From contig OZ361259.1 of the NCBI GenBank assembly GCA_977018835.1, forward strand, positions 310,001-374,000: a stretch of DNA of 64,000 bases, read 5' to 3'. This document shows, piece by piece, positions 10,271 to 57,718 of this stretch. The stretch is from Minutocellus sp. GHC0000111. Taxonomy: Eukaryota. The translations under genes were made by a program, and so were the position numbers. The notes below the pieces were generated by a model. The model saw only the letters and a list, made by a program, of their open reading frames with translations, was not told the origin of the DNA and did no database searches. Positions within the stretch are counted from its first letter, which is position 1, and each line of letters begins with the position of its first letter.

Positions 10271-11022
10271 TCATAGCTTCGACGTTAACTGCGGAGCCTG
10301 TGCCCGGCTCTTGCCTTCCACTTTCCTAGACATAATGGCAACCATATCTTTTTCCAACATGGGTGGTTTGTAAAGCCATTGGCCACCATCAACAATCAAG
10401 ACATCGCCGGTTACGAAGCTCCCGCTTCCTTCGCTGGATAAATACACAGCCGACATGCCAATGTCGAATCCCCTTCCCATTCGACCAAGGGGAATACCCT
10501 CGGATACCATTTCATTCATGTCGTCTCCATCGATCCCGGGAGACAGCTTGGTCATACCCGGCGTTCCCTCAATCGGTCCTGGCGCAATGCCGTTGACGCG
10601 AATGCCGTCAGCACCCCACTCGAGAGCGAGGCTTCTAGTAATGGAGTCCACGGCAGCCTTGGCAGCACTTGCATGCACTTGATACCACGTCGCCGGGCAC
10701 TGCAGCGTTGCAGATATATTAATGATAGAGCCATTGCCACTTGCTTTCAAGGCCTCGTATGCCGCATGAGACATATTGTATGTTCCAATGGTGTCGATCT
10801 CCAATACTGTCCTGAACCCCTTTGGTCGGAGGTCAGAAGCATTGGATAGAAAGTTCCCAGCTGCACCATTGATAACAATATCCACCCGACCAAATTTTTC
10901 CAACGCGTACGCAACAACATCCACACAGGCGTCAGGATCTCGGACATCGCAGGTTTTGTACAAACAAGGCCTTCCGGAATCGGCGGTGAGGGCCTCTGAC
11001 GCACGTGAGAGGAAACCCTCTC
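10271..11022 (-). pseudogene. DECR2: Peroxisomal 2,4-dienoyl-CoA reductase (SDR), 5'-truncated
   Basis: NGAAGNF, HASAAKAAVDSITRSLALEWG, VNGIAPGPI and C-terminal SKL (PTS1); the N-terminal TGGGSGIG NADPH-binding motif and ATG are absent and unrelated sequence begins at ~11023. Confidence 0.8.
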
Positions 11023-11397
11023 TCAGACTTTGCACATGGCTATCAAGGCGGTCGCCGACGGCAATGAAACTTGCACAGCAGGTAGACTAGATGATTGCGC
11101 ATTCGTGGGTGCAAGTGCGGTCGAATTTGGTTGCATGTTTGTTGAGGAACGGTTCGTCGAAGATGTGCTTTTTTGGGGCATCTTCGTGCATCTCGTCGAT
11201 CGAGACCGAAAATTCATTACAACCCTAACCCTCACAGTTAAAACACTCGAAAATGCTAGATGCAGTGCATTAAGAGGGCGCTGTCCATAATTTTCCCCGT
11301 TTTTAATCCCCTTTATTCTTATTTCTTATGACGAGCGAAGCATGACAAAAACTCGACCCCACCATGAGAATCGCCGCTCTGCCCCCTCTTCATTACG

Positions 11398-12627
11398 ATG
11401 AAGCGCAGCGCTGATAATAGTGCTGGCCCGGCCCACAACGCAGATACGCGGTTGCGGAAACTCAAGACAGATAACTCCGGTCGCCCGATTTTGCCTGTTG
11501 ACAAGAAGAAAGAGAAGGCGGAGGACAAAGCGAAAGACGCCGTTACCGAGACACTGGAGGGCCTCGCCGTCACGTTGGAGAACGACCCGAACGGACAAGG
11601 ACGAGAATTATGGAACAATCCCGGCGTCGGCCATGCACTTCAACATCTTGTCAAAGCAGTCGAGGCTCGCGCTGATAAGTATCATGTTCGGGATGATATT
11701 GATGTCGCTGCTGAGCGGCCCGGCCTCGTAGTTACCAACCTGTCCGTGGCTGATGTGAAGTTGAGGCTGACGGTCGGCATCGTCGATCAATTGCAAGATC
11801 CCATGTTTGACGCCGGACCTGAATTCTTCCCTATATTTCAACTTCATGGGAAACGGATCGATATTGGATCGGCTCTTGCTGCGCACGGCCGACCTTTCAA
11901 CACCACATCGCTTACTTTGCTTGATGGAAGCGGAAAGCTTATCGTCGCTCGTGTTGCCCTGACAATTACCGAAAAGGCCCGAAGTCTACAACAGGGCCAT
12001 GTGATCAAATTGACAAAGTTCCACCGATGGCATGTGGCTCCATATGATGACATACACTCTACTGCTGGGATTGGACTAGTTGATTTTGATATTGTTGGAA
12101 TGGGCCAACTTCTGCAGGTAGATGGTGGGCCATCAGCAGCGATCAGATCGGACACGGATGCTCTTGTTGCGGCCGTTTGTGAGGAAGCCGACGATGATCC
12201 GACGGCAGCGCCGGAGGCAGACACATTCGGTAATTGGGACGAGACCAGAGAGAGGCCGCCAATACCCCCTGCTTGCTGCACTGCCGCCAACCGAAGCTGC
12301 TCAATGTACGGCACACTCTTCTTTCAGAAATGCGTCTGCGAAGAAATGCTGGTGCCGACGGAGGAGGACCTGGAGGATATCGCTGACAAATACTACGCAA
12401 CCACCATGCCAGTCGAAGCCATGGCAAATAATTTGAAGAGGAACATGCTGTATTGGTACTATGCAACTGAGGTGTATCATGTGAGAGGTTGGCTTGATCG
12501 GAAGCCCTTGCCAACCTGTCTAGTCTTTTGCATCAGGTTCATTTATCCAAATGATAAAGGTGAACGATATGTTGGATTCATCCCTGGTCATCAAGATGAA
12601 GAGGAAGAAGAAGAGGAAAATGCATAA
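11398..12627 (+). CDS. Transposon accessory protein: RPA70N-like OB fold plus C-terminal KolX/P2X7-C-terminal-like Cys-rich domain
   Basis: Intact 409-aa ORF inside the TIRs; LTVGIV...PIFQL...LTLLDG...LQQGHVIKLTKF...LVDFDIVG resembles the RPA1 N-terminal OB fold; CC-x6-C...CVC...KRNMLY...RKPLPTCLVFCIRFIYP resembles the P2X7 tail/KolX signature. Confidence 0.7.
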   Translation: MKRSADNSAGPAHNADTRLRKLKTDNSGRPILPVDKKKEKAEDKAKDAVTETLEGLAVTLENDPNGQGRELWNNPGVGHALQHLVKAVEARADKYHVRDDIDVAAERPGLVVTNLSVADVKLRLTVGIVDQLQDPMFDAGPEFFPIFQLHGKRIDIGSALAAHGRPFNTTSLTLLDGSGKLIVARVALTITEKARSLQQGHVIKLTKFHRWHVAPYDDIHSTAGIGLVDFDIVGMGQLLQVDGGPSAAIRSDTDALVAAVCEEADDDPTAAPEADTFGNWDETRERPPIPPACCTAANRSCSMYGTLFFQKCVCEEMLVPTEEDLEDIADKYYATTMPVEAMANNLKRNMLYWYYATEVYHVRGWLDRKPLPTCLVFCIRFIYPNDKGERYVGFIPGHQDEEEEEEENA

Positions 12628-12731
12628 TCATTACCTCAACACATGTAGATAACAAGAATGTGCGTAGCACGTGAGTAACAGCACACAATAAATCCATTTT
12701 TATTTACAGTGATAAAATATTTTACACGTGT

Positions 12732-15046
12732 TTACAAGCTGCCATTTTCTCTCAGTATCGCCGGCATCCAAGAGCTAACATCATTTGCCGATACACCGAA
12801 GTTTGTCTTAGCTTTCTTATTATTTCTTGCAGATTTCTTGTTGCTGCCTGGGCTTCTGCGCTTCTTTCCGGCGTAAACGACAACGTCGTCAGCATCGTCG
12901 CATTGACATTCAGCCCGAGTGTGGCCAAGCTGCTTGCATTTCTGACACTGCTGGTCAATCTTCTTCTTGCGGCCAGGCTTTGCTGGTTTCGCCTTACCAG
13001 CAGCTAGGGCCCTGTTCTTCTTGTACACATAGTCCTTGTCGTCTTTCTCGCTTCTGTTTCGCAAGGCTGCTCGAAGGCGCTTGCTGTCGCTCTTGCTCTT
13101 TTTGTACTCATCGGTGCGCTTACGCGCAAGGTCGCCCTCGAGCTTCCGGTCAATTGCATCGAATCCATCTTTTCGGGTAGGAGAATCCCTCGATCCCAAC
13201 TTTCCAAGAACTCGCTCATTGAATTCCGTACCCAGTGACTTGTGGCCAGCGGCTCTACTTGTTGCATTTGGGTAGGCGTCTGAAGCAGTCAAATTCGGCC
13301 TTTTCCCCATCGTGAACTTCGTCACCATCCCGTTGAGCTGTTCGACGCCGGTGGTAGATTCCTTCTTGCAGTTGGAGTCGGCAGTATTCTTGTTGATTCT
13401 CTTGGTTATTTCAAGCGTCATCTTGCGAATCGTGTCGTCACTAATCTCCAATATGTCGCCATCGAATTGATTCCCCGAGCTCCATTCCTCATCGAGCTTG
13501 CCATCACTCCAATCAGGATGAGCAATGCTGAGGTGAATCCAATCACACGTGTTGGTGGTGCAAAAAGTGTGAATGCCACATTGGTGACGAACGACGGACT
13601 GGAGTTCTTTCTGAAGGAGGGCCAGATGACTTTGTTTTTCCTCCTCGGACACAGCACCATCGGGCTGATCGAGAACGCTGTGCTTGTACCGATCAGTAAT
13701 CTTCGAAATGTCCTGTTTCATCCGATTGATGCGTGGTCGGGGGATGGCATTAAAATTTTCAACTCCCAACATTCTCGGCCAGATGCTCCTCTGCCACACC
13801 GGGGGAGTAGGAAGAGTTGCGATAGCAGAAGCCATCATGGTCGTACAGGGCCAGTGTCTCATCCTTGCTCATGTTTTTGAGCTCAACTCGGCGTTATTGG
13901 ATTGCCGGCTTCCCGCCTCTCCCTCAATCTTGCATTGCAGGCTCTCACGCAACAGTGGCAGCTTGCCTGAGAGATTCCCTTGTCAACAACAAGGCCAGTT
14001 TCCTTGTCTACGGCAAATACCGCTGCAGCAGAGCCAGTGTAGCAATGGCCGTAGTCGCGTTTGAGGGCGCTGCCGTCTTGGGCCACCGTAACCACCGCCG
14101 CCGTGTGCATCTCGCCGCCTTGTTCAAACTCAACAGTCTTGCTGCTAGCGGCATGTGCTTTTGCCCTATTCTCGTCAATGATTTCATCAGCTGCTTCAAT
14201 AGCCGCTGCTCTGCATTTCTTTTCCACCTGTCGGGCATTCTTTTCGGTCGGATGGACGATGTCGGCCTTCGTGCAGAAATTCATGAAGCGACTTGCGCAC
14301 ATGGCCTCATCTTCCGCTGCCTCCATCAGCTCCAAGTTCATTCCAGCCTGACTTCTAGAATGCTTTCTGCCGGGGCACACAACTTCTGACCTCTGGCCGA
14401 TCCCAGTGCAAAAAGAAAAAGGTTGGTTGCATCTATCGCATCGCCATTCAAATGTAACGCCGAATCCACGCCGAACTGGCTCGGCCGAGAGATGCAGATT
14501 GCCGCACGATCGGTGGAGATTCTGTGCGAAATCACACAGCTGCTTCATCTCAACCACAATTCTTTTGCCGTTGAGCTGCACGCCGGTGATGTTGGGACGA
14601 TCGGTAGCGTTGGCGGTGGGAGTAGATGACCGACCGCCCGAAGAATTCTTGTCGGAACAATGTTTCAGTGTCGCGTTGAGATGGGGCCCATGCTTTTCAT
14701 CGTCCTGGAAGTAATTTTCAGGTGTGGTCGGCAGTGATCGCTTGCCATTGCGTTGAGAGCGTGGGCTGGCGTTATCGGCTATTCTGGAGAAGCGGTAGAA
14801 GGGCTTTGCAACGTCAAGGCCTGACATTTTCTCTGGACGTCGTCGTTGGATGTTGACCTCGTGTCGTGTTGGGACGTGTTGAAGAGATGATCGAACAAGA
14901 GAGATCTCTAAGCTCGGCGATGCGCCACCGCGCATCAAGATACGGTCAAGCTCATCAATAGTGTAGTAAGTACATCTGACGTCGTCTGGGAATGAGAGCA
15001 AGAGTGAGAGGATTGCCTCCTTGGCGTTAGCACGTGATGTTTCCAT
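12732..15046 (-). pseudogene. Kolobok/Mutator-like DDE transposase, frameshifted and internally deleted
   Basis: CG...RGFGVTFEWRCDRC; VTVAQDGSALKR (first Asp); DKETGLVVD...CHCC; short third-frame piece HDGFCYRNSSYSPGVAEEH (~13887-13762); HQCGIHTFC; TTGVEQLNG (catalytic Glu); C-terminal CxxCxxxGHxxxxC knuckle; no second-Asp (DGD-like)/CxxH segment found. Confidence 0.8.
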
Positions 15047-15518
15047 GGTTGTTTTTTTGTTTTGTGTCGGTTCTGGCGCAAGATGCGCTTTTTGATGAGA
15101 ACCTTACAAAAAGAACCCCAAATGAGGGAGACGTGCAAAAATACCCCAAACAAATATCCCCTTACCTCCCAACAGCAAAACTTCAAGATGTCTTCCCACC
15201 AGCACCACCAATGCTGGTTATGCGTCGGCCGAGACTAATTTCGGTTGATCCGACGATGATGTGTACGTCGACCATTATTATGTTTCTGAGGGAGAGTTGA
15301 TTCATCGAAGTTCCTCTGAACCAAGTGTTCCTGGAGGGATTTCCGACTTAATGCTGAAAGGAACGTCGATGACTCTTCGCCACTGTGGAGAGCGGCGGCC
15401 TTCGATGAGGAGCCCATCCTCACGTTGGAGTGCTAACTTTGGCCATGGTGCGAAGAAAAAACAGCACAAAACACGCATTTTGGGGGCTTCCTAAAAGTTA
15501 TGGACAGCGCCCTCTTAA

Positions 15519-16742
15519 AACATAAGTTAGCAACTGGAGGAAGGTTGTGTTCTATCTGTTCCTGACCGTTTTGCACCGCACTGAAGTGAGATAGCAAGGT
15601 CGGCATGAGCATCTCAACCTTAATGCCTCTAAGCATGTACTTGTTCATTCGGCTTACGGATCTCTGTATCAGAACGAACATGAATTTGTGCCTAATGAGT
15701 TGAGATGCTTTCAGTGAGATCCAGGATTTACAAGTAAGTTCCAGAGATGAACCAATTTTGCTGTTGTCCGTTCCAAAATGAAATCCTTGGTTCAACAAGT
15801 ATTGAAGAAACTTGATTGGTTCTCCATTAGAACAAAACCTTTTCTCCAGATGAAGCAAACGGTGACAGGTGGACAGAGCGTTGAAATCACCCTAAAAAAA
15901 TTGGCTCAGTTCCCCACACAGTGACGTGTAATTCTTGTGCTTGGAACATGTTGGTCTCCTGATCTTTTGAATGAATTCCTAGCATCAGGTATTTCAAACT
16001 TTAACCCATCACAAGATGCCATGCAAATGCTAAGATCAAACTGCTCGATGAGAAAAGACGGTGATGAGTCACTCTCGGCCACGACCAGATCAGCAATGTT
16101 GCGTTCTTCTTGTCCGAGAACAAATCTGGGACGGGATCTATTTCAGGCATGGACTTTTCATCGGCGGGTCCATCACACATCAAAACATAGTTTAGGCGAC
16201 TTCCTGGTGAAGCTGAAATGTCGACATTTTCACCAAGATGTCGAATGGTGGCTCTTTCTGCACGAACCACCTTTCTCCATCGTTGTTTGACAGATGTGTC
16301 CCCCCCATTGCTAAGAGACACCGAGGCACACGGGTTCCCTGTGTTGCGAGGAAACTCTGCTATGTCCTTCTTCTACTTGCTCCATGCCATTCGATAATCG
16401 GAGAAAATCTTGGAGGTTTTCATCACCATAATATCTATCTTTTATCCGAGAGAGAGAACAAGATCTGGTCCGTTTGCATCACAGAGCCATCCTCGAACAA
16501 AAGGTGCTGAAGACTTTGAAGAGAACATGTCTACATCAGTTTGTTCTCCAAACGTCCTCCCGAGAATCGCCTGAACGACTATGGACCCTGACAGCTTCAC
16601 TGACCCTCTCATTACTTTTGACGACATGTCTTCAAATGACTTGACAGTGAAACCAGAGCGATTCTTTTTCAATGCGTAGTCAGTCAAGGGGGAAGAACGC
16701 AAACTAGAGCGCAGCAAAAACTTGGCAATTGACAACTTAACC
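15519..16742 (-). pseudogene. Decayed Pol-beta-superfamily nucleotidyltransferase-like ORF (its 3' end continues at 11269-11023, beyond the Kolobok)
   Basis: Fragments in several frames: LSGSIVVQAILG...TDVDMF (GS...DxD), IADLVV...FDLSICMASCDG, RMNKYMLRGI; removing 11274-15518 fuses ...VANLCF-NALHLAF... in frame. Confidence 0.55.
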
Positions 16743-35151: not shown

Positions 35152-37837
35152 ATGTCCGCCTCCCCCGCCAAGAAGAAGGTGAAGCAGGAAGCCCTCGACG
35201 CCGCCCTGTCCGTCATGACGGACGCCGCCAATCCGGCCCTGTGCGACGTCACCATCGTCTGCACTACCGATGACCACCAGGCCGCCTACTGGACCAAGCG
35301 GCTGTCCGAGGGGGTTTGCCACTCGCCCTCCTCTACCTCTGCCGACGACTCCTCGCCCTTCCCCCTCGTCCTGGCCGTGTCTGAGGACTGGTCCGCCGGC
35401 GGTGCCGGAAACGGCCTCGGCACTCTTCATGCCTACACCAAGGCCGCCAAGGTGGCCAAGGACCGGCACGGAGTCGACCTCGACACCCAGCTGCGGGAGG
35501 GCAAGATTTCGGCCGCCCTCTGCCACACGGCCGGGAAGGGCACCCGCCTGGCGCCCCTGCCGGCCAGCGAGAACAACAACAAGCCTGGAGTGGTGAGTGG
35601 TGTAATGGTTGGGAGGCAGTGGTGCATGTTAGAGCAAACTCAACTTTGCACATAAATCATCATGTGCCGATAATTGATTTTTGACACTCCGGTCATTTGT
35701 TTATTTGCGGCATTGCAATTGCAATTGCATTTGTGAAGGGAGTCTTGGAAATGTCGGGCGGCCAATCACCACACACATGCACATGTGCACACACACATGT
35801 TAGTCCCAAAATGCGCACTGTCCCAGTTCGCGAACTGGGATCCCAGTTTGCGAACTAGGACTTATTTGTCCCAGTTTGGAAACTGGGATCACAGGCACAA
35901 TCTCAGTTTGCAAACTGGGATCAATCGAGAAATGATGAATGTTTAGCATGGATGATGTCGCCTTTGCTTCTCCTCGCTTAATTTTTTCATAGTGAAGCAA
36001 CACAGCCCAAACCTAGTCCAGACGTCCAGACGACATTAGTGCCGGAGCTGACACTCAATAAATTGGCATTAGCTGATGCTAAACACACACAGTGAATAAA
36101 TAACAATGTCTAGCTAGCTGCTTCTGGCAAACATAAGTCATGAACTGTACATGCATCTGTGCTATGCCGGCATCATGTTGCTACTGTACCAGTGCATGTA
36201 GCTTGCAAATTCAAGATATGATGCACAGTGCAACTTGTGTTGTAGATAGATCTACCAGTGCATAATCATTGTGCATGAGCCAACACCGGCAGTTACCATT
36301 CTGACACTTGCCGAGAATGCCAGTTTCCAAACTGGTATTCATTTTTGTTCCAGTTCGCGAACTCGTCTGGTTCCCAAATTCGGATTGGCGTGTTTATCTC
36401 AGTTTCCATTCTGGTAGTATCAGTGCGCAAACTGAGATCCTAGTTTGGGAACTGGGGCCCAGTGCGCAAACTGGGATAAATGAATCTCAGTTCGCAAACT
36501 GGGATCCCAGTTCGCGAACTGGGACAGTGCGCATTTTGGGACTAACATATACATATCGTTGCTTGCATTCATCTCACCGTTCATGATCTCATTTTGTGCT
36601 CCTGCCCGTCCGATAGAAACTCCCCGTCTGCCACAAGCTGAGCGACGGATCGTTCGAGCCCATGACCGTCCTGGAGGCCGTCGTCAAGCAGACGGGCATC
36701 TACGCCCCGTCCCGCAAGGGACGTCTGTCGGTGTTCTGGGGCGACCAGGTATTCATCCCCTCGGCCGCCTTCTCCTACGCCCCGACCCACCACGTCGACA
36801 TCATGTGCACCCTCCTCGGCGACACGGCCCCGACGGCCGAGGAGTGGTCCGAGCAGGGACTCGACAAGTACGGCGTCATTGCCGTGTCCAAGGGGGAGGG
36901 ACGGGATGCCGCCCAGGTGGAGAAGGTCGACCATGCCACGGCCGTCAAGATGCTGCAAAGTCTCGGTGACATTGGTCAGGTCGGACCCAGCCTGGGTTCC
37001 TTCTCCGTTTCGGCCTCCATGCTCGAAGCGCTCTGTGCGGAGTATGCCTCGGAGTTATCCGCCAAGGCTGGAAAGTTCGACACCGACCCCCACTTTTGGA
37101 TGCCCCTGACGTTGCCCGAGGAGGCCTACGTGTCCCTCATGGGCCAAAAGGGAGTCGATGCCGCCGTATCCAAGGCCCATCACGAGCGCATGGCCAAGAT
37201 GAAGGCCGCGTTCGACCTTGGGACCATGGGCCTGTTCGGTGCCGTCGACGTTGGGTCCGATGCCGCCTGGTGGGACTACGGTCAGCTCAAGTTGTATTAC
37301 AAGAACAACATTAGTCTGACCGACTTTGACGACAAGACGGCCGACCTGTACCGTCGCTTTCTGGGTGTCAAGGCGGCCAAGGAGAACTCGACGATCGGTG
37401 ATGCCGTCAAGGTTGATGACAAGTCCTGCGTCTTTTCCTCGACGGTCAAGGACTCTGGTTCGATTACCAATTCGGTGTTGGCGTCTGTGAATGCTCTGAG
37501 TGTGGAGGCAGATGGTGCCATCATTGTCAACTGCCCCGCCAAGTCGATCAAGGCTGGCAAGAACGCGGTCCTGTACAACATCGTGGATGACTCCGAGGAG
37601 GGCATCGTCGCTGGAGAGGGAGATGTCATTGTGAGCGTCACCGAGGAGGATGGTACCATGATGGAGTTGAAGAGCAAGCATTCCATTTGTGGCGGCAAGG
37701 CCTGGAAGCAGGTTCTGGATGGCAACACCATGTCGTTCGAGGACGTCCATGGCAAGAACAAGGATGCCAACGTGTCGGCTATTGAGACCAAGAGGAAGCA
37801 CCTTCACAAGCAGGCAAGTGCGTCGTTCGGCATCTAA
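35152..37837 (+). CDS. Nucleotide-sugar pyrophosphorylase-like protein; intron 35593-36616 contains a MITE
   Basis: HTAGKGTRLAPL (NTP-transferase N-terminal motif), FWGDQ and WWDYGQ; splicing joins NNKPGV-KLPVC in frame. Confidence 0.75.
35797..36548. mobile_element. 752-bp non-autonomous TIR element (MITE) with palindromic subterminal repeats
   Basis: 60-bp perfect TIRs (35797-35856, 36489-36548); many copies of CCCAGTTyGCrAACTGGG near both ends; TSD not resolved. Confidence 0.9.
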
Positions 37838-50925: not shown

Positions 50926-52681
50926 TTAGTAACCCTCTTCTTTTTCCTTTTGTTTCACTTTCGCGTATCCCGAGTCACTCTTATCTTCCCGCACATGTGC
51001 CTTTCCAGACCTTGAATCCACAACGCATGCCATGATTAGCCAAAAACAGCAGCATAGAGCCCAGAACAAGGCTGAGAGGGCAAAAATATTGTAGGCCAGG
51101 GCGTGGGCCTTCTCGGGAGATGCTGCACCCTTTTCTGCTGTTTCATCAATCATCCCACTCGTCAGATATCCCACCAATGGCGCACCGAGTACTGAAGCAG
51201 ATATCTATGTTGAAAATGAAGGGTAAATCAGTGCCGGCACGGTACATGTATTGTTAGGGTTAGAAAGAAAAACAAATCAAAGGTATTGCATGTAAATGTG
51301 CATGTGCCCTGCATTGTCATTCAACTGACTCTGAGAACAAGGCAGCATGTATGTGACCAAACTCACCATCTCTAGGAGCAACCAGAGCGAGACAATCTGA
51401 GCCCTCTCCGATGGATTCCGAGCCATCTCGGCTGTCATCGGGCGGAGAACTCCCGCACGAGGCCATCCGGCGATGACAAAAAAGACATTTACCCAAAAGA
51501 ATATGCTCTTGTAGGTGGTGGAAAATAGAAACATACCGTAGGCAGTAGTTCCCAATGCTTTACTGGTGAGCGCGACATATATCCGACCTCGGGGCAGATG
51601 AGCAAACCTATCACCGCTTATTCCCTTGGAAAACTGGATGGACACGATTTGCTCTCTCGATAGGCCGCGCCACTCATAAAGCAGTAATAGGAAGCTCATC
51701 ATATCCCAGGGAATGCCGCCAAATATACCTTGACCTACCAGACAGAGGAATGCAGGTATTCGGGTAATTCGTCGGACAATTTGTCCCAGCGTCATCTTCT
51801 TCTTATCGTCGCCCCCAGTGCTCTTGCTATCCGCCTTTCCAACACCAGTATGGCCTGTCACGACCAACATGCGCGGAGTCAATATTGCCGCAAATAGAGA
51901 TAGTAGACCGATCGCAAGATATGGCATCTGCCAATTCGAGAACCAAATTATTGATGCAGCGGCAAAAGTACCAGCGAGCTTCTCGGCTAGTCCCATTACT
52001 GTGGATATGTGTGCGTTCAGAGGGACGAGAGGAAACAGAGCATGAGAGACCAATAACAAGAGCATTAACCTACACGAACCCACACGATGGTATCACAGAC
52101 CTTCCCTTTAAATATACTGCGCATGACTCACATCCAAAGGCTCTACCGAGCATATTGCTCGGTACGAACTCAACCAGCAGTGTCTGACTCAAAGGCATTA
52201 TGCTCGCTACAGCACCACCATTGATGCTTCGGAACAAAGCCTGTGCCATCACACTGGACCCAGCCACGGCAAGTCCCAATGTTGATATGCCCCACAAAGC
52301 ACAGGCCCACGCGAGAATTATTGGTGCTTGCTTGATGCTGTATCTGCGGACGCACCAGCTCCATAGCGGTAGAGAAAGAGCGTATGAAAGGTTGGAAAAC
52401 ATGGAGAAGTAGCCGAGGGTTTCCACCGACATACCAAGCTGCTTCTCGAGCATAGGGAAGGAGGAGGCCAGCAGGCCCTTATCAGCAGAATCAAGGGCAG
52501 CAATCATTATGACAATGAATGTAGGAAGGCTGAGGATGGATCGAATGGCATTGAAGCTCTTGAAGGGTAAAATGGACAGTGCCGATGACCGTGGGGCGTT
52601 CTTGCCAACGGTCGAGCCAAAATCAGCGCCGCCATCCTCCTCGTCGTAATCACTTCCGCCCTGATGCCGGCGCTGCTGCAT
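50926..52681 (-). CDS. MFS transporter (spinster-like), paralog 1, with a 30-bp in-frame deletion at ~51612
   Basis: AALDSADKGLL, GIFGGIPWDMM; ISG-DRFAH here versus ISGTIGTPLGGFLGDRFAH in paralog 2; two introns. Confidence 0.82.
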
Positions 52682-53648
52682 GGCAGAGGCACCTTCGAAG
52701 AACAACTCAGGGCGGCGGCTGATCGCGAATTTCCATCATCTGCTGGTGCCGCAGAACTTCGGCGTGCCAAAAAGATTCTTCTACACCTGCTGACAATCTA
52801 AAGATACGCAACAACCACCGTCACGAGATGTTGCATCAACTAAAGTGGCTTGAACCATGCTCAAAGATGAGGGTCGGGGTGCGTGGGAGGGCGCCTCCAT
52901 CGTTGACTTCATCAGTCACTTGGGTTTTGTTACCTTGCCTTCTGTGATTGGTCCAGGTAGCCGAAGAGAGAAGGCTCCGGGTGCCTTGTTCGGAGCTCAA
53001 AGATGAGGCTTGCTGAGCAACGAGATTTGAGCTAGATGCATCAATGACGCAAGTTGATAGACAAGGCACGATCAAGATCAAGAGGAAAGAGAGAGCAGAA
53101 CGACAGGACGAACGAACTCACTCTTCTTGGTAAAGCAGGAGCTGCATCGACTGAGAAGAGGATATCGAGTATCGCTCGATTCTTTTTTTTTCCGCCAAAT
53201 TGTTGTTTTACTTGCAATTACAACACAATTTACTAGATCTACGAGGGTGGATGCCTGGGAGGGTCCATGCGATACGAGATAGATGAGGCGACTGGACTTG
53301 GTTCGAAGGTACTTCGCGCGGTTTGCGCCGCCGCCGCCGCCGCAAACGCCCGCGCCATCAGACGAGAGGTGGCGGGGCGGGGCATGCAAGAGTCGAAGAG
53401 AAAGCCGGCACATCGCAACGATTCCTCTCTTTGATCCAAGCCCGACTACACATGTACTAAGTTGAGGTGCTAACAACTACTTCTAGATAGCCAGGCTCCT
53501 GTAAACTTTTGTAGTTCAATAGATCCAGTAGATTGCATATACTACCGGTAATTTGTTCAAAGTTGCCCGTGCCGTGTGTGAAAAATTCTACGGTACAATA
53601 CATGTGTAGATCTAGACTCTACATATGTACATGGTCGAACAAAAACCC

Positions 53649-55692
53649 TCATGCAACCTGAAGAAGCTCGATGCCCCTGCCCATTGTTTTACTGCTGGCG
53701 ATTGCCTCTGGCTTACCCACCGCGTCTTCGCGTTGACTAAGCTCGGCATATTCTACACCTCCCTTGCCACTTCGCACACCACTGGTAGTATTTGAATCCA
53801 CAAAGTATGCCATGAGGCACCAGAAGCAGCAGCATAGAATCCAGAACAAGGTCGAGAGAACGAAAATATTGTAGGCCAGTGCATTAGCCTTTTCGGGTGA
53901 TGCCATGCCCTTTTCTGTGGTTTCGTCGATCATCCCACTCGTCAGGTACCCCACCAATGGTGCACCGAAGATCGCTGCTGCGGTCTTTGGCGTTAATTGA
54001 AGAAAAGAAAGGTCCAAAACGAAATTGTTAGTGAAACAACGACACATAACTATATCGACGCCCGATCTGAATTGATGAATAAATTATTGCTCCATAACCT
54101 CCCAGAATGCATGCGCATGAGGAAGCGCAGCGCTCTCCCTTTAGAGAAGGAGCCATCCGGAGTCACGGCGGGGCGCATTGTCTGCGCTCCACCATGTGTG
54201 ACGGTCCGTTGGTTTGCTTTCGCACACTATAGGAAAACTTTCTGCCCACTGGAAAAAGGACGAAGGCCTAGTAACGGTGCTTTGCTCTGCTCTTCTGACT
54301 GACGGATACATACAAATGAATGCGTTCGGCAGCACACTCACCTTTTCCAACAGCAACCAGAGGGAAACAATTTGGGCTCTCTCTGACGGGTTTTGTGCCA
54401 TCTCGGCACATATGGGTCGATTTGCTGCGGCAGTTGTCCACCCCGCAACTAGATGGAATAGGTTGAACCAAAAGAATATGCTCTTGTAGGTAGTTGAGAA
54501 CAAGAATATACCAAACGATATCGTTCCAAGTACAACGCTGGTGAGCGCGACATATATTCGACCTCGGGGCAAATGAGCGAATCGATCCCCGAGGAAACCG
54601 CCCAGGGGCGTCCCAATGGTACCGCTGATGCCCTGGGTGAATTGAATGGACACAATTTGCTCTCTCGATAGGCCGCGCCATTCAAACAAAAGTAGCAGGA
54701 AGCTCATCATGTCCCAGGGAATCCCACCGAATATGCCTTAACCTACAAGGCAGAGGAATGCTGGTATTCGGGTAATTCGACGGACAATTTGTCCCAGCGT
54801 CATTTTCTTCTTGTTGCCATCCTCGTCGCGTTTCTCCTTGTCATCACCGTGACCAGATACGGCCAGAAACCGCTGAGCAAATGATGCGGCGACGAGCGAC
54901 AGCACACCGACAGCAAAGTAGGGCATCTGCCAGTTCGAGAACCAAATTATTGAAGCCGAAGCGATGGTGCCGGCAAGCTTCTCGGCAAGGCCCATCACTG
55001 TTAATGAGAGAAAATGTTGCGCAGTTGGTTCATATTGTGAGAAACAATACAATGCATGGCACATTATATTGTAGGGATCCCTAGTTTGCAAGTATAGTAC
55101 AAGTATAATACACGTCGATCATATCAAACTCACGTCCAAAGGCTCTACCGAGCATGTTGCCCGGGACAAACTCCACGAGCAGCATCTGGCTCAGGGGTAG
55201 GATGCTGGCCACGGCACCACCATTGATACTCCGAAAGAGCGCCTGAGCACCGACACTGGAACCCGCCACGGCAATTCCCAACGTCGATGCCCCCCAAAGG
55301 GCACAAGAACCGGCCAGTATCGACGGCGATCGTTGGATGCTGTATCTGTGGACGCACCATCCCCATAACGGTAGGGCGAACGAGTACGACAGGTTGGTAA
55401 AGAGGGAGAAGTAGCCGAGGGTTTCCACCGACATACCCAGCTGCTTCTCGAGCATGGGGAAGGAGGAGGCCAGCAGGCCCTTGTCGGCGGAGTCCAGGGC
55501 GGCGATGACGATGATGATGAAGGTGGGAAGGTTGAGGACGGACCGGACGGCGGCCAGGGTTGCTCTCAGTGATTGGAGGGTGTTGGTCCAAAAGGAGAGG
55601 GGAGCTGGGGCGCCGGCTGCCGATGAGCCGAAATCATCGCCGTCATCCTTCCACATGTCGTTGCTGCCGCCCGGTCTTCGACGTTGTTGCAT
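53649..55692 (-). pseudogene. MFS transporter (spinster-like), paralog 2, with a nonsense codon
   Basis: Colinear with paralog 1; CLVG-TAA-GIFGG at 54738-54740 where paralog 1 has CAA (Gln). Confidence 0.85.
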
Positions 55693-56214
55693 CGTTTGGC
55701 CTCTAACTGACAACTAATGTGCTGGTACTACGTAGTAGGTTGTTTGTGTCAACGAATTTGCGGCCAACGAAATTGACGCACGTCACGCTTTCTCTCTTTC
55801 TCTCTTTCAGGCGAAGATAATAAAGCTGCGATTCGTCTCGGAGGACGCTACCTCTTATGCGCCAAGTAGCTCGGCCGAAGAAGCGAAGGGGGTTTATGCC
55901 CTCTCGCTCGGCGCCATTCTTTTTGTAGGACTATGCAAGCCGTCGCGTCATGGTTTCAGCCATTGGTTGCTCATGATATGTTTTGAGCATGCAGGTGCAT
56001 GGCGAGCCATGATGAGCCATCATAGCCGGTTGATGGACGGACTTGCGCGCTCTGCACTGCAGTCTGCATGCAGCAGCTATGTAGCTCAGCAGCTCTCGAT
56101 TTTGCCGATGCCAAGCAGCATTTCACAACTCAACTCAACTCAACTCGTGACGCGTACTCTGGCTAGTATCGGCCGTCACGTGTCGCCCATTTCATCCAGT
56201 AATTTACCATCATC

Positions 56215-57631: not shown

Positions 57632-57718
57632 CATTGTACCAACTTCCTTTTATTGATGATCCTTACTCAGAAGGGTATTGTAGACCATAATCAACAATAA
57701 AAGGAAGTTGGTACAATG
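57632..57718. repeat. Inverted repeat / hairpin with 29-bp arms (1 mismatch) and a 29-nt loop
   Basis: CATTGTACCAACTTCCTTTTATTGATGAT (57632-57660) versus ATCAACAATAAAAGGAAGTTGGTACAATG (57690-57718). Confidence 0.92.

Follow-up and report, generated by a model that had tools for sequence, protein, structure and literature searches.

A probable non-autonomous Kolobok transposon with a predicted OB-fold and KolX-related second protein in Minutocellus sp. GHC0000111

The stretch of DNA analysed here, hereafter the window, comprises 64,000 nucleotides of Minutocellus sp. GHC0000111 (assembly GCA_977018835.1, contig OZ361259.1, positions 310,001 to 374,000 of the forward strand). At window positions 11274-15514 it carries an element of 4,241 bp that begins with GA, ends with TC and is bounded by TTAA on both sides. 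We conclude with high confidence that the element belongs to a TTAA-flanked Kolobok family, probably of a diatom, that was amplified recently; the copy itself is non-autonomous, was likely moved by the 842-aa (amino acid) transposase of sister copies, and carries a second gene for a predicted OB-KolX protein. The evidence comes from the ends of the element, from a deletion shared by several copies of its transposase gene, from the near identity of those copies, and from the motifs and predicted folds of both proteins.

Ends and target site of the element

The limits of the element are defined by the following features:

11270-11273 (no strand): TTAA, left putative target-site duplication, seen in the window sequence and in contigs from other loci
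11274-11294 (+): left terminal inverted repeat (TIR), 17 bp perfect and 20 of 21 bp matching, starting with GA
15494-15514 (-): right TIR, ending with TC
15515-15518 (no strand): TTAA, right putative target-site duplication, seen in the window sequence and in contigs from other loci

Taken together with TTAA, the TIR pair spans 25 nt at 96% and is the sole long inverted pair within positions 10500-16500. Since 20 mononucleotide shuffles of the window yielded only 0-6 inverted 17-mer matches, a 21-bp perfect pair bracketing the transposase gene is not expected by chance. An earlier note, made from the letters of this DNA alone, had reported the 17-bp perfect TIRs (21 bp with one mismatch), the GA...TC ends and TTAA on both flanks; all of these were borne out by the window sequence, and TTAA was also found at other loci. 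Among the 24 of 72 loose-end rows listed, six contigs with five distinct foreign flanks match the element through TTAA and then diverge. Mutator-like elements (MULEs) of the MuDR type produce variable target-site duplications of 8-10 bp, an outcome that the earlier note had set against its own reading; TTAA is fixed at all five distinct flanks listed, and at the window locus no direct repeat of 8-10 bp was seen on either side of TTAA. No second copy of the element was found within the 64-kb window.

A broken transposase gene and probable movement in trans

The two tail-to-tail open reading frames (ORFs) described previously are indeed convergent genes, but the transposase gene is split into three pieces lying in three frames. 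An intact relative, P0041 (842 aa, open), falls in the same 90% cluster as the window transposase. The gene contains the following features:

12732-15046 (-): transposase gene, ATG at 15046 and stop at 12732, convergent with ORF2
13886-15046 (-): 5' piece, residues 1-387, with the N-domain, zinc ribbon and first catalytic D; TpA-hypermutated zone; PF20700, E 1e-14
14777-15046 (-): predicted winged-helix domain, residues 1-90, in place of THAP, from the P0041 model
13885 (-): one extra base causing a frameshift, omitted by contigs of four sequencing runs
13768-13884 (-): middle piece, residues 388-426, second half of the CCHC finger
13766-13767 (-): junction of a ~215-bp internal deletion, with a loose end at 13766 in run X1 and 428-aa relatives
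12732-13766 (-): 3' piece, residues 499-842 of P0041, with the inner zinc finger, catalytic E and C-terminal knuckle; out of frame
12906-12947 (-): C-terminal CCHC zinc knuckle; PF00098, E 0.011, below cut-off

Compared with P0041, the ~215-bp deletion removes 71 codons (residues 428-498) that sister copies keep, and with them both the second catalytic Asp (DGD 451) and the DxxH signature (DFNH 481). One contig of run X1 continues at 13766 into sequence absent from the window, and the 3' piece is 98.8% identical to P0016 and P0041. The extra base at 13885 is either a private mutation or an assembly error. Introns were considered as the cause of the split and rejected, since the 71 residues missing here are encoded in relatives, from which the extra base is absent. 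Judged from its sequence, the transposase of the window copy is dead. The description of the element as fully delimited therefore holds for its ends only, and the copy itself is a non-autonomous deletion derivative.

The same deletion recurs in other copies. A transposase cluster of 170 members includes, among the 15 listed, five proteins of 428 aa that end at the same junction and one of full length. Because several copies share this break and such a protein lacks the catalytic centre, we infer that the deletion form itself was amplified and moved in trans. Internal deletions of other extents were observed in P0018, P0058, P0066, P0017 and P0052, which belong to the window family and related families.

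A young family with many copies

On long contigs, ORF2 and the transposase form clusters of 71 and 170 members, respectively. One ORF2 sequence occurs on 22 contigs, and the recent spread of the family follows from the finding that 19 of 20 ORF2 copies lie within 0-4 residues of P0019, the commonest sequence; the window ORF2 differs from P0019 by a single residue (Ile to Thr). Contig depth in run X1, which when summed is not a copy number, amounts to ~7,900 over ORF2 versus 59-110 on the flanks. The family is thus young and present in many copies. RNA runs also contain the element as contigs, which is not proof of transcription.

Named relatives of ORF2 come only from two species, Minutocellus polymorphus (63% identity for the cluster representative) and Extubocellulus spinifer, which makes a diatom host likely. 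A sister family represented by P0013 and P0009, with 60% transposase and 52% ORF2 identity to the window element, probably represents another Kolobok family of this assembly. Scans of metagenome contigs with A2 and A1, and of viral contigs with the TIR, A2, A1 and A4, found no loci, and a scan of phage records with P0041 found nothing.

The second protein: a predicted OB fold and a KolX-related tail

The second ORF had been taken for KolX as a whole. Its last ~110 residues are KolX-related, but its middle is a predicted OB fold, and the gene was annotated as follows:

11398-12627 (+): ORF2, intact, 409 aa, with a helical N-terminal part, an OB fold and a KolX-like tail; 71-member cluster at 99%
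11746-12141 (+): predicted OB fold, residues 117-248, closest to the RPA70N/Rfa1 N-terminal OB by Foldseek and VIA
12253-12582 (+): Cys-rich KolX / P2X7-ballast-like domain, residues ~286-395, from profile A3 versus PDB

The ORF2 model is ordered over residues 110-245 only. Compared with the N-terminal OB of RPA70/Rfa1, the OB part gave a Foldseek E of 1.1e-4 (prob 1.0) and VIA Z scores of 10.8-10.9 (root-mean-square deviation 3.0, 110 of 130 residues aligned, 13-16% identity), the OB folds of MCM10 and Teb1 trailing by 1-2 Z units. Atlas returned sub-threshold OB families at 0.84-0.88 for ORF2 and nothing useful for the tail. When the 45-sequence tail profile A3 was searched against the PDB, only P2X7 was matched (residues 539-593, E 2.5e-5), and a full ORF2 profile placed P2X7 first and RPA70N next, with weak E values.

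A profile search with ORF2 retrieved 251 family representatives after clustering at 50%. In the 148 family matches examined, coverage extends to the tail in 123 cases and to the OB part in 43; 38 matches span both. Pfam scans of 118 of the 150 homologues listed assigned P2RX7_C to 41 of these 118 at E<=0.05 (three above cut-off) and Rep-A_N to three (none above cut-off). Five Cys columns are kept across the family. At residue 332 (window ~12391), 43 of 54 members of the wider family have Cys and the window's family has Tyr, so that one likely zinc ligand is missing at this position. In three of 184 proteins, one of them a Minutocellus transcript, ORF2 runs on into the antisense of the transposase, so that the two genes are linked there too. 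On the basis of these models and profiles, ORF2 is predicted to consist of an RPA70N-like OB fold fused to a KolX-related tail.

Transposase architecture and superfamily placement

According to the available part of PMC9587614 (Kojima and Bao 2022), a Kolobok element is recognised by three features, namely a TTAA duplication, RR...YY ends and a DDE core containing C/DxxH; the diatom Fragilariopsis cylindrus is among the hosts. The same part describes a zinc finger between DxxH and E in Kolobok, which MuDR, P and hAT lack; it lists a CCHC finger after the first D for the KolobokP, E, D, 5 and solitary families and not for Kol0, the lineage that KolX defines. The accessible portion of PMC6004289 calls THAP 'usually' present in Kolobok.

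The P0041 transposase contains, in order, QDG at 323, CxxC...H...C (363, H403, C407), DGD at 451, DFNH at 481, H...H..C...C at 559-572 and VEQLNG at 638. By motif, this corresponds to a DDE triad with DxxH that is conserved in the transposase alignment A2; the CCHC finger at 363-407, after the first D, is invariant in A2, and the second zinc-finger motif, again by motif, falls at 559-572 between DxxH and the last E. The order fits the scheme in section 10 of PMC9587614 and, by eye, the Data S5 rows, so far as these were available. With TTAA flanks, RR...YY ends and these core motifs in P0041, membership of the Kolobok superfamily, as proposed by the earlier note, is supported at the level of sequence.

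The transposase N-terminus had been described as an ~90-residue helical segment devoid of a THAP-like C2CH motif. No THAP match was found in Pfam scans of the window pieces or of P0041, and the N-terminal 90 residues are conserved across five sequences (A5) without a conserved Cys/His pattern, in agreement with that description. The fold predicted for these ~90 residues is a winged helix. In the P0041 model, the N-terminus adopts a helix-strand-helix-helix-hairpin arrangement (pLDDT 60-74 over residues 1-60), and 41 of 50 VIA structural matches fall on residues 1 to ~90-120, with a best Z of 7.2. The top N-terminal matches are ESCRT-II, Fur/Zur, PadR and cullin domains, all of which we take to be winged helices. 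The model thus predicts an N-terminal winged helix, likely DNA-binding, rather than THAP. The C-terminal CCHC knuckle, which had also been noted, is present; it is weak in Pfam and variable among relatives. Searches of the PDB with transposase profiles found no solved relative by sequence. A distinct Kolobok lineage, which the earlier note had raised, is plausible on this architecture.

Other identities were weighed against the same evidence. An ordinary Kol0 Kolobok, or the Fragilariopsis cylindrus family already deposited, with a KolX bearing an unnoticed N-terminal extension, is unlikely but survives best: Kol0 is defined by KolX, and Kolobok_1_FraCyl is listed as '_2p' and hence has another protein (PMC9587614, available part). 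However, the window family has no THAP and carries a CCHC finger after the first D, which that part of the source does not list for Kol0. The FraCyl core shown there differs from P0041 by eye in spacing and inserts, and a literature search for Kolobok elements with an OB fold found none.

Considerably less probable is a MULE in which TTAA would be the tip of the inverted repeat. Such an element would carry a direct repeat of 8-10 bp, which is absent at the TTAA of the window locus; moreover, the element bears a KolX-related gene, and P0041 shows between DxxH and E the zinc-finger motif that MuDR, P and hAT lack (PMC9587614, available part). The MULE reading draws on PF20700 'Mutator-like transposase', the sole significant Pfam match (E 3e-20 for P0041), whose profile may not separate MULE from Kolobok, on the DxxH common to MuDR and Kolobok in the same source, and on ISCth4, a weak entry among the Foldseek rows (E 0.26). 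A piggyBac element that captured a KolX-like gene is largely refuted, since the GA...TC ends are of the Kolobok RR...YY type (PMC9587614, available part), PF20700 and DxxH are present, Pfam scans of the transposase gave no piggyBac family (the catalytic core being unfolded in the P0041 model), and the piggyBac proteins lack most of the five Cys columns kept in the ORF2 family.

Several points weigh against our conclusion that the element is a Kolobok copy with an OB-KolX gene. TTAA is palindromic and could be the TIR tip rather than a duplication. Among the contig pieces examined there was no empty site, and for other copies it was not possible to match a left flank with its right flank, so that TTAA is a putative target-site duplication. 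The one Pfam match above cut-off carries the name 'Mutator-like', and the comparison of P0041 with the reference Kolobok cores was made by eye. The models are of low confidence overall (mean pLDDT 47.6 for ORF2 and 46.7 for P0041); the winged-helix Z scores lie below 8, the tool's caution line, and the catalytic core is unfolded in the full-length P0041 model, whose top Foldseek match is Hermes (E 0.037). As for ORF2, the window protein alone gave no Pfam match, a six-sequence profile found nothing in the PDB, the P2X7 ballast match spans ~55 residues, and the tail is unresolved in the model (pLDDT <50).

TpA-directed changes in the copies

Variable columns among 16 family transposases and the window pieces are rich in Tyr-to-Cys/His, Ile-to-Thr/Met/Val, Thr-to-Ala and Val-to-Ala exchanges. 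In the ORF2 copy P0023, 24 of 53 visible TA sites are changed versus 2 of 336 other A/T sites (p 2e-21), and the remaining 19 ORF2 copies hold three such TA changes in total. Frame-shifted tails (P0040, P0042, P0043, P0005, P0008 and P0027) were masked, those of ORF2 only in the Tyr-cell and compatibility analyses.

The changes are unevenly distributed along the transposase. At 16 variable Tyr sites in residues 1-427, 86 of 182 cells are changed (47%), a count that excludes Tyr sites 62, 119 and 370, at which the family is fixed, and rises to 120 of 216 when they are included; in residues 499-842, 5 of 40 Tyr cells are changed (12%). The window copy itself has Cys or His at 7 of the 16 variable Tyr sites in residues 1-427 and at none of six in residues 499-842. 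At eight Tyr sites some copies have Cys and others His, which indicates changes on both strands. When polarity was assigned by the nearest outgroup, a TA-ancestral state agreed with 32 of 47 columns and a CG-ancestral state with 7, and decay of CpG as the source of the Tyr changes was rejected on this ground. TpA sites of the copies have turned into TpG or CpA, mainly in the transposase 5' half. This pattern suggests a mutator of the host that targets adenine in copies already inserted and strikes most often close to the promoter of the transposase gene. In the sister family, Tyr-to-Cys/His changes are few (they make up 3 of the 58 differences from P0048 past residue 140).

Character pairs incompatible with a tree number 127 of 246, as against 152 +/- 7 after shuffling; hits at TA are therefore recurrent and at the same time partly inherited. 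This inherited part tells against a mutator, as do three properties of the data: a control model based on AT context 'explains' 39 of 74 columns as well, which makes the column count alone weak; the TpA counts come from protein sequences read against the codons of the window copy; and the ORF2 and transposase samples are different copies, whose cells are not independent.

That the pattern instead represents reversed CpG decay, old polymorphism shuffled by gene conversion, or sequencing error appears improbable. TG and CA do arise from CG as well, TA characters share some ancestry, and depletion of TA is mild, with an observed/expected (o/e) ratio of 0.40 in the transposase versus 0.60-0.65 in the flanks and 0.36 in one host ORF. 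The outgroups, however, retain Tyr, Ile or Thr rather than Arg, and one copy has lost the invariant Tyr of CYRNS. Illumina contigs of other samples carry adjacent TG/CA alternatives, and ORF2 falls in a single contig of 1,106 bp, which has full depth and shows no common variant, whereas the transposase 5' half is fragmented. Moreover, P0023 has 10 of its 11 Tyr changed, in contrast to 0 of 211 cells in the other 21 ORF2 sequences.

In the available part of bioRxiv 10.64898/2026.01.13.699255, TpA hypermutation is described in integrated viral DNA of Bigelowiella natans and an adenine deaminase is proposed. A literature search found TpA hypermutation in print only for Bigelowiella, and none for diatoms.

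Proposed mechanism and significance

By analogy with other transposons of the DDE family, the transposase would bind the TIRs, probably through its winged helix, excise the element and insert it at TTAA by cut-and-paste. Intact sister copies would supply the 842-aa transposase that mobilises the deletion form in trans, and a host mutator would change TpA in inserted copies. Where the element is excised or inserted, the OB-KolX protein might serve as an adaptor that contacts replication or repair proteins of the host. We put this role forward tentatively from the models and favour it because the structures nearest to the predicted fold are those of the RPA N-terminal OB, which binds proteins; a single-stranded DNA binder is a somewhat weaker candidate on the same models, and some other role is also conceivable. 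More speculatively, the family could belong to a widespread, undescribed algal Kolobok lineage that combines a winged-helix transposase with an RPA70N-like OB-ballast protein co-opting host replication or repair factors, with a host mutator aimed at the promoter-proximal half of the transposase gene; we regard this broader picture as doubtful.

KolX has no known function, and its fusion to an RPA70N-like OB fold provides a testable lead. The P2X7-ballast family is also extended outside animals. Furthermore, young, near-identical copies with an intact transposase and a TpA gradient constitute a good substrate for finding the mutator's guide.

Neighbouring features of the window

Other features of the window are the following:

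11026-11256: ~230 bp left of the element, with raised depth and a loose end at either boundary
10271-11086 (-): short-chain dehydrogenase gene, adh_short_C2 E 1e-42, the match beginning at profile position 36
35797-36548: 750-bp non-coding element resembling a miniature inverted-repeat transposable element, with a ~60-bp perfect TIR and many internal subterminal repeats; CpG o/e 0.62, CpA o/e 1.48
57632-57718: perfect inverted repeat with arms of 24 bp, separated by ~39 bp
52070-52735 and 55081-55713 (-): two similar ORFs, by eye apparently tandem membrane transporter paralogues

Depth reaches ~1,200-2,700 in the 10974-11147 bin versus 110-198 beside it. The 11026-11256 segment is likely a fragment of another repeat, and the Kolobok element may therefore lie next to or inside another mobile element. 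The 5' part of the dehydrogenase gene runs into this repeat, contigs of runs X1/X4 show 2-base insertions at 11004 and 11066, and the gene is possibly a disrupted allele or affected by assembly errors.

Comparison with known systems

The literature comparisons below refer to the available parts of the sources cited above. With the Kolobok superfamily, the window element shares TTAA, RR...YY ends, a DDE core with DxxH, both zinc fingers and a second gene. Unlike the Koloboks described there, it combines a KolX-related gene with a CCHC-type core, a predicted OB fold, a predicted winged helix and a C-terminal knuckle. Like Kol0 with its KolX, the window's second protein ends in a P2X7-ballast-homologous domain; unlike Kol0, the element has no THAP, has a CCHC finger after the first D, and encodes a 409-aa ORF2 with an OB domain. 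The likeness to the ballast is limited to its last ~55 residues, the upstream Cys spacing being unmatched, and the RPA70N/Rfa1 N-terminal OB is the best structural match of ORF2 residues 117-248 at an identity of only 13-16%.

The mutational pattern resembles that of Bigelowiella natans in that A changes to G after T on either strand, giving both TpG and CpA, and in its patchiness between copies or lines. It differs in occurring in a stramenopile, in a repeated DNA transposon and as a gradient within one 4.4-kb element, and in being inferred from copies rather than seen de novo. Neither the type of element nor its presence in diatoms is new; what is new is its architecture, in which a KolX-related tail is joined to an OB fold and a winged helix stands in place of THAP alongside a CCHC-type core.

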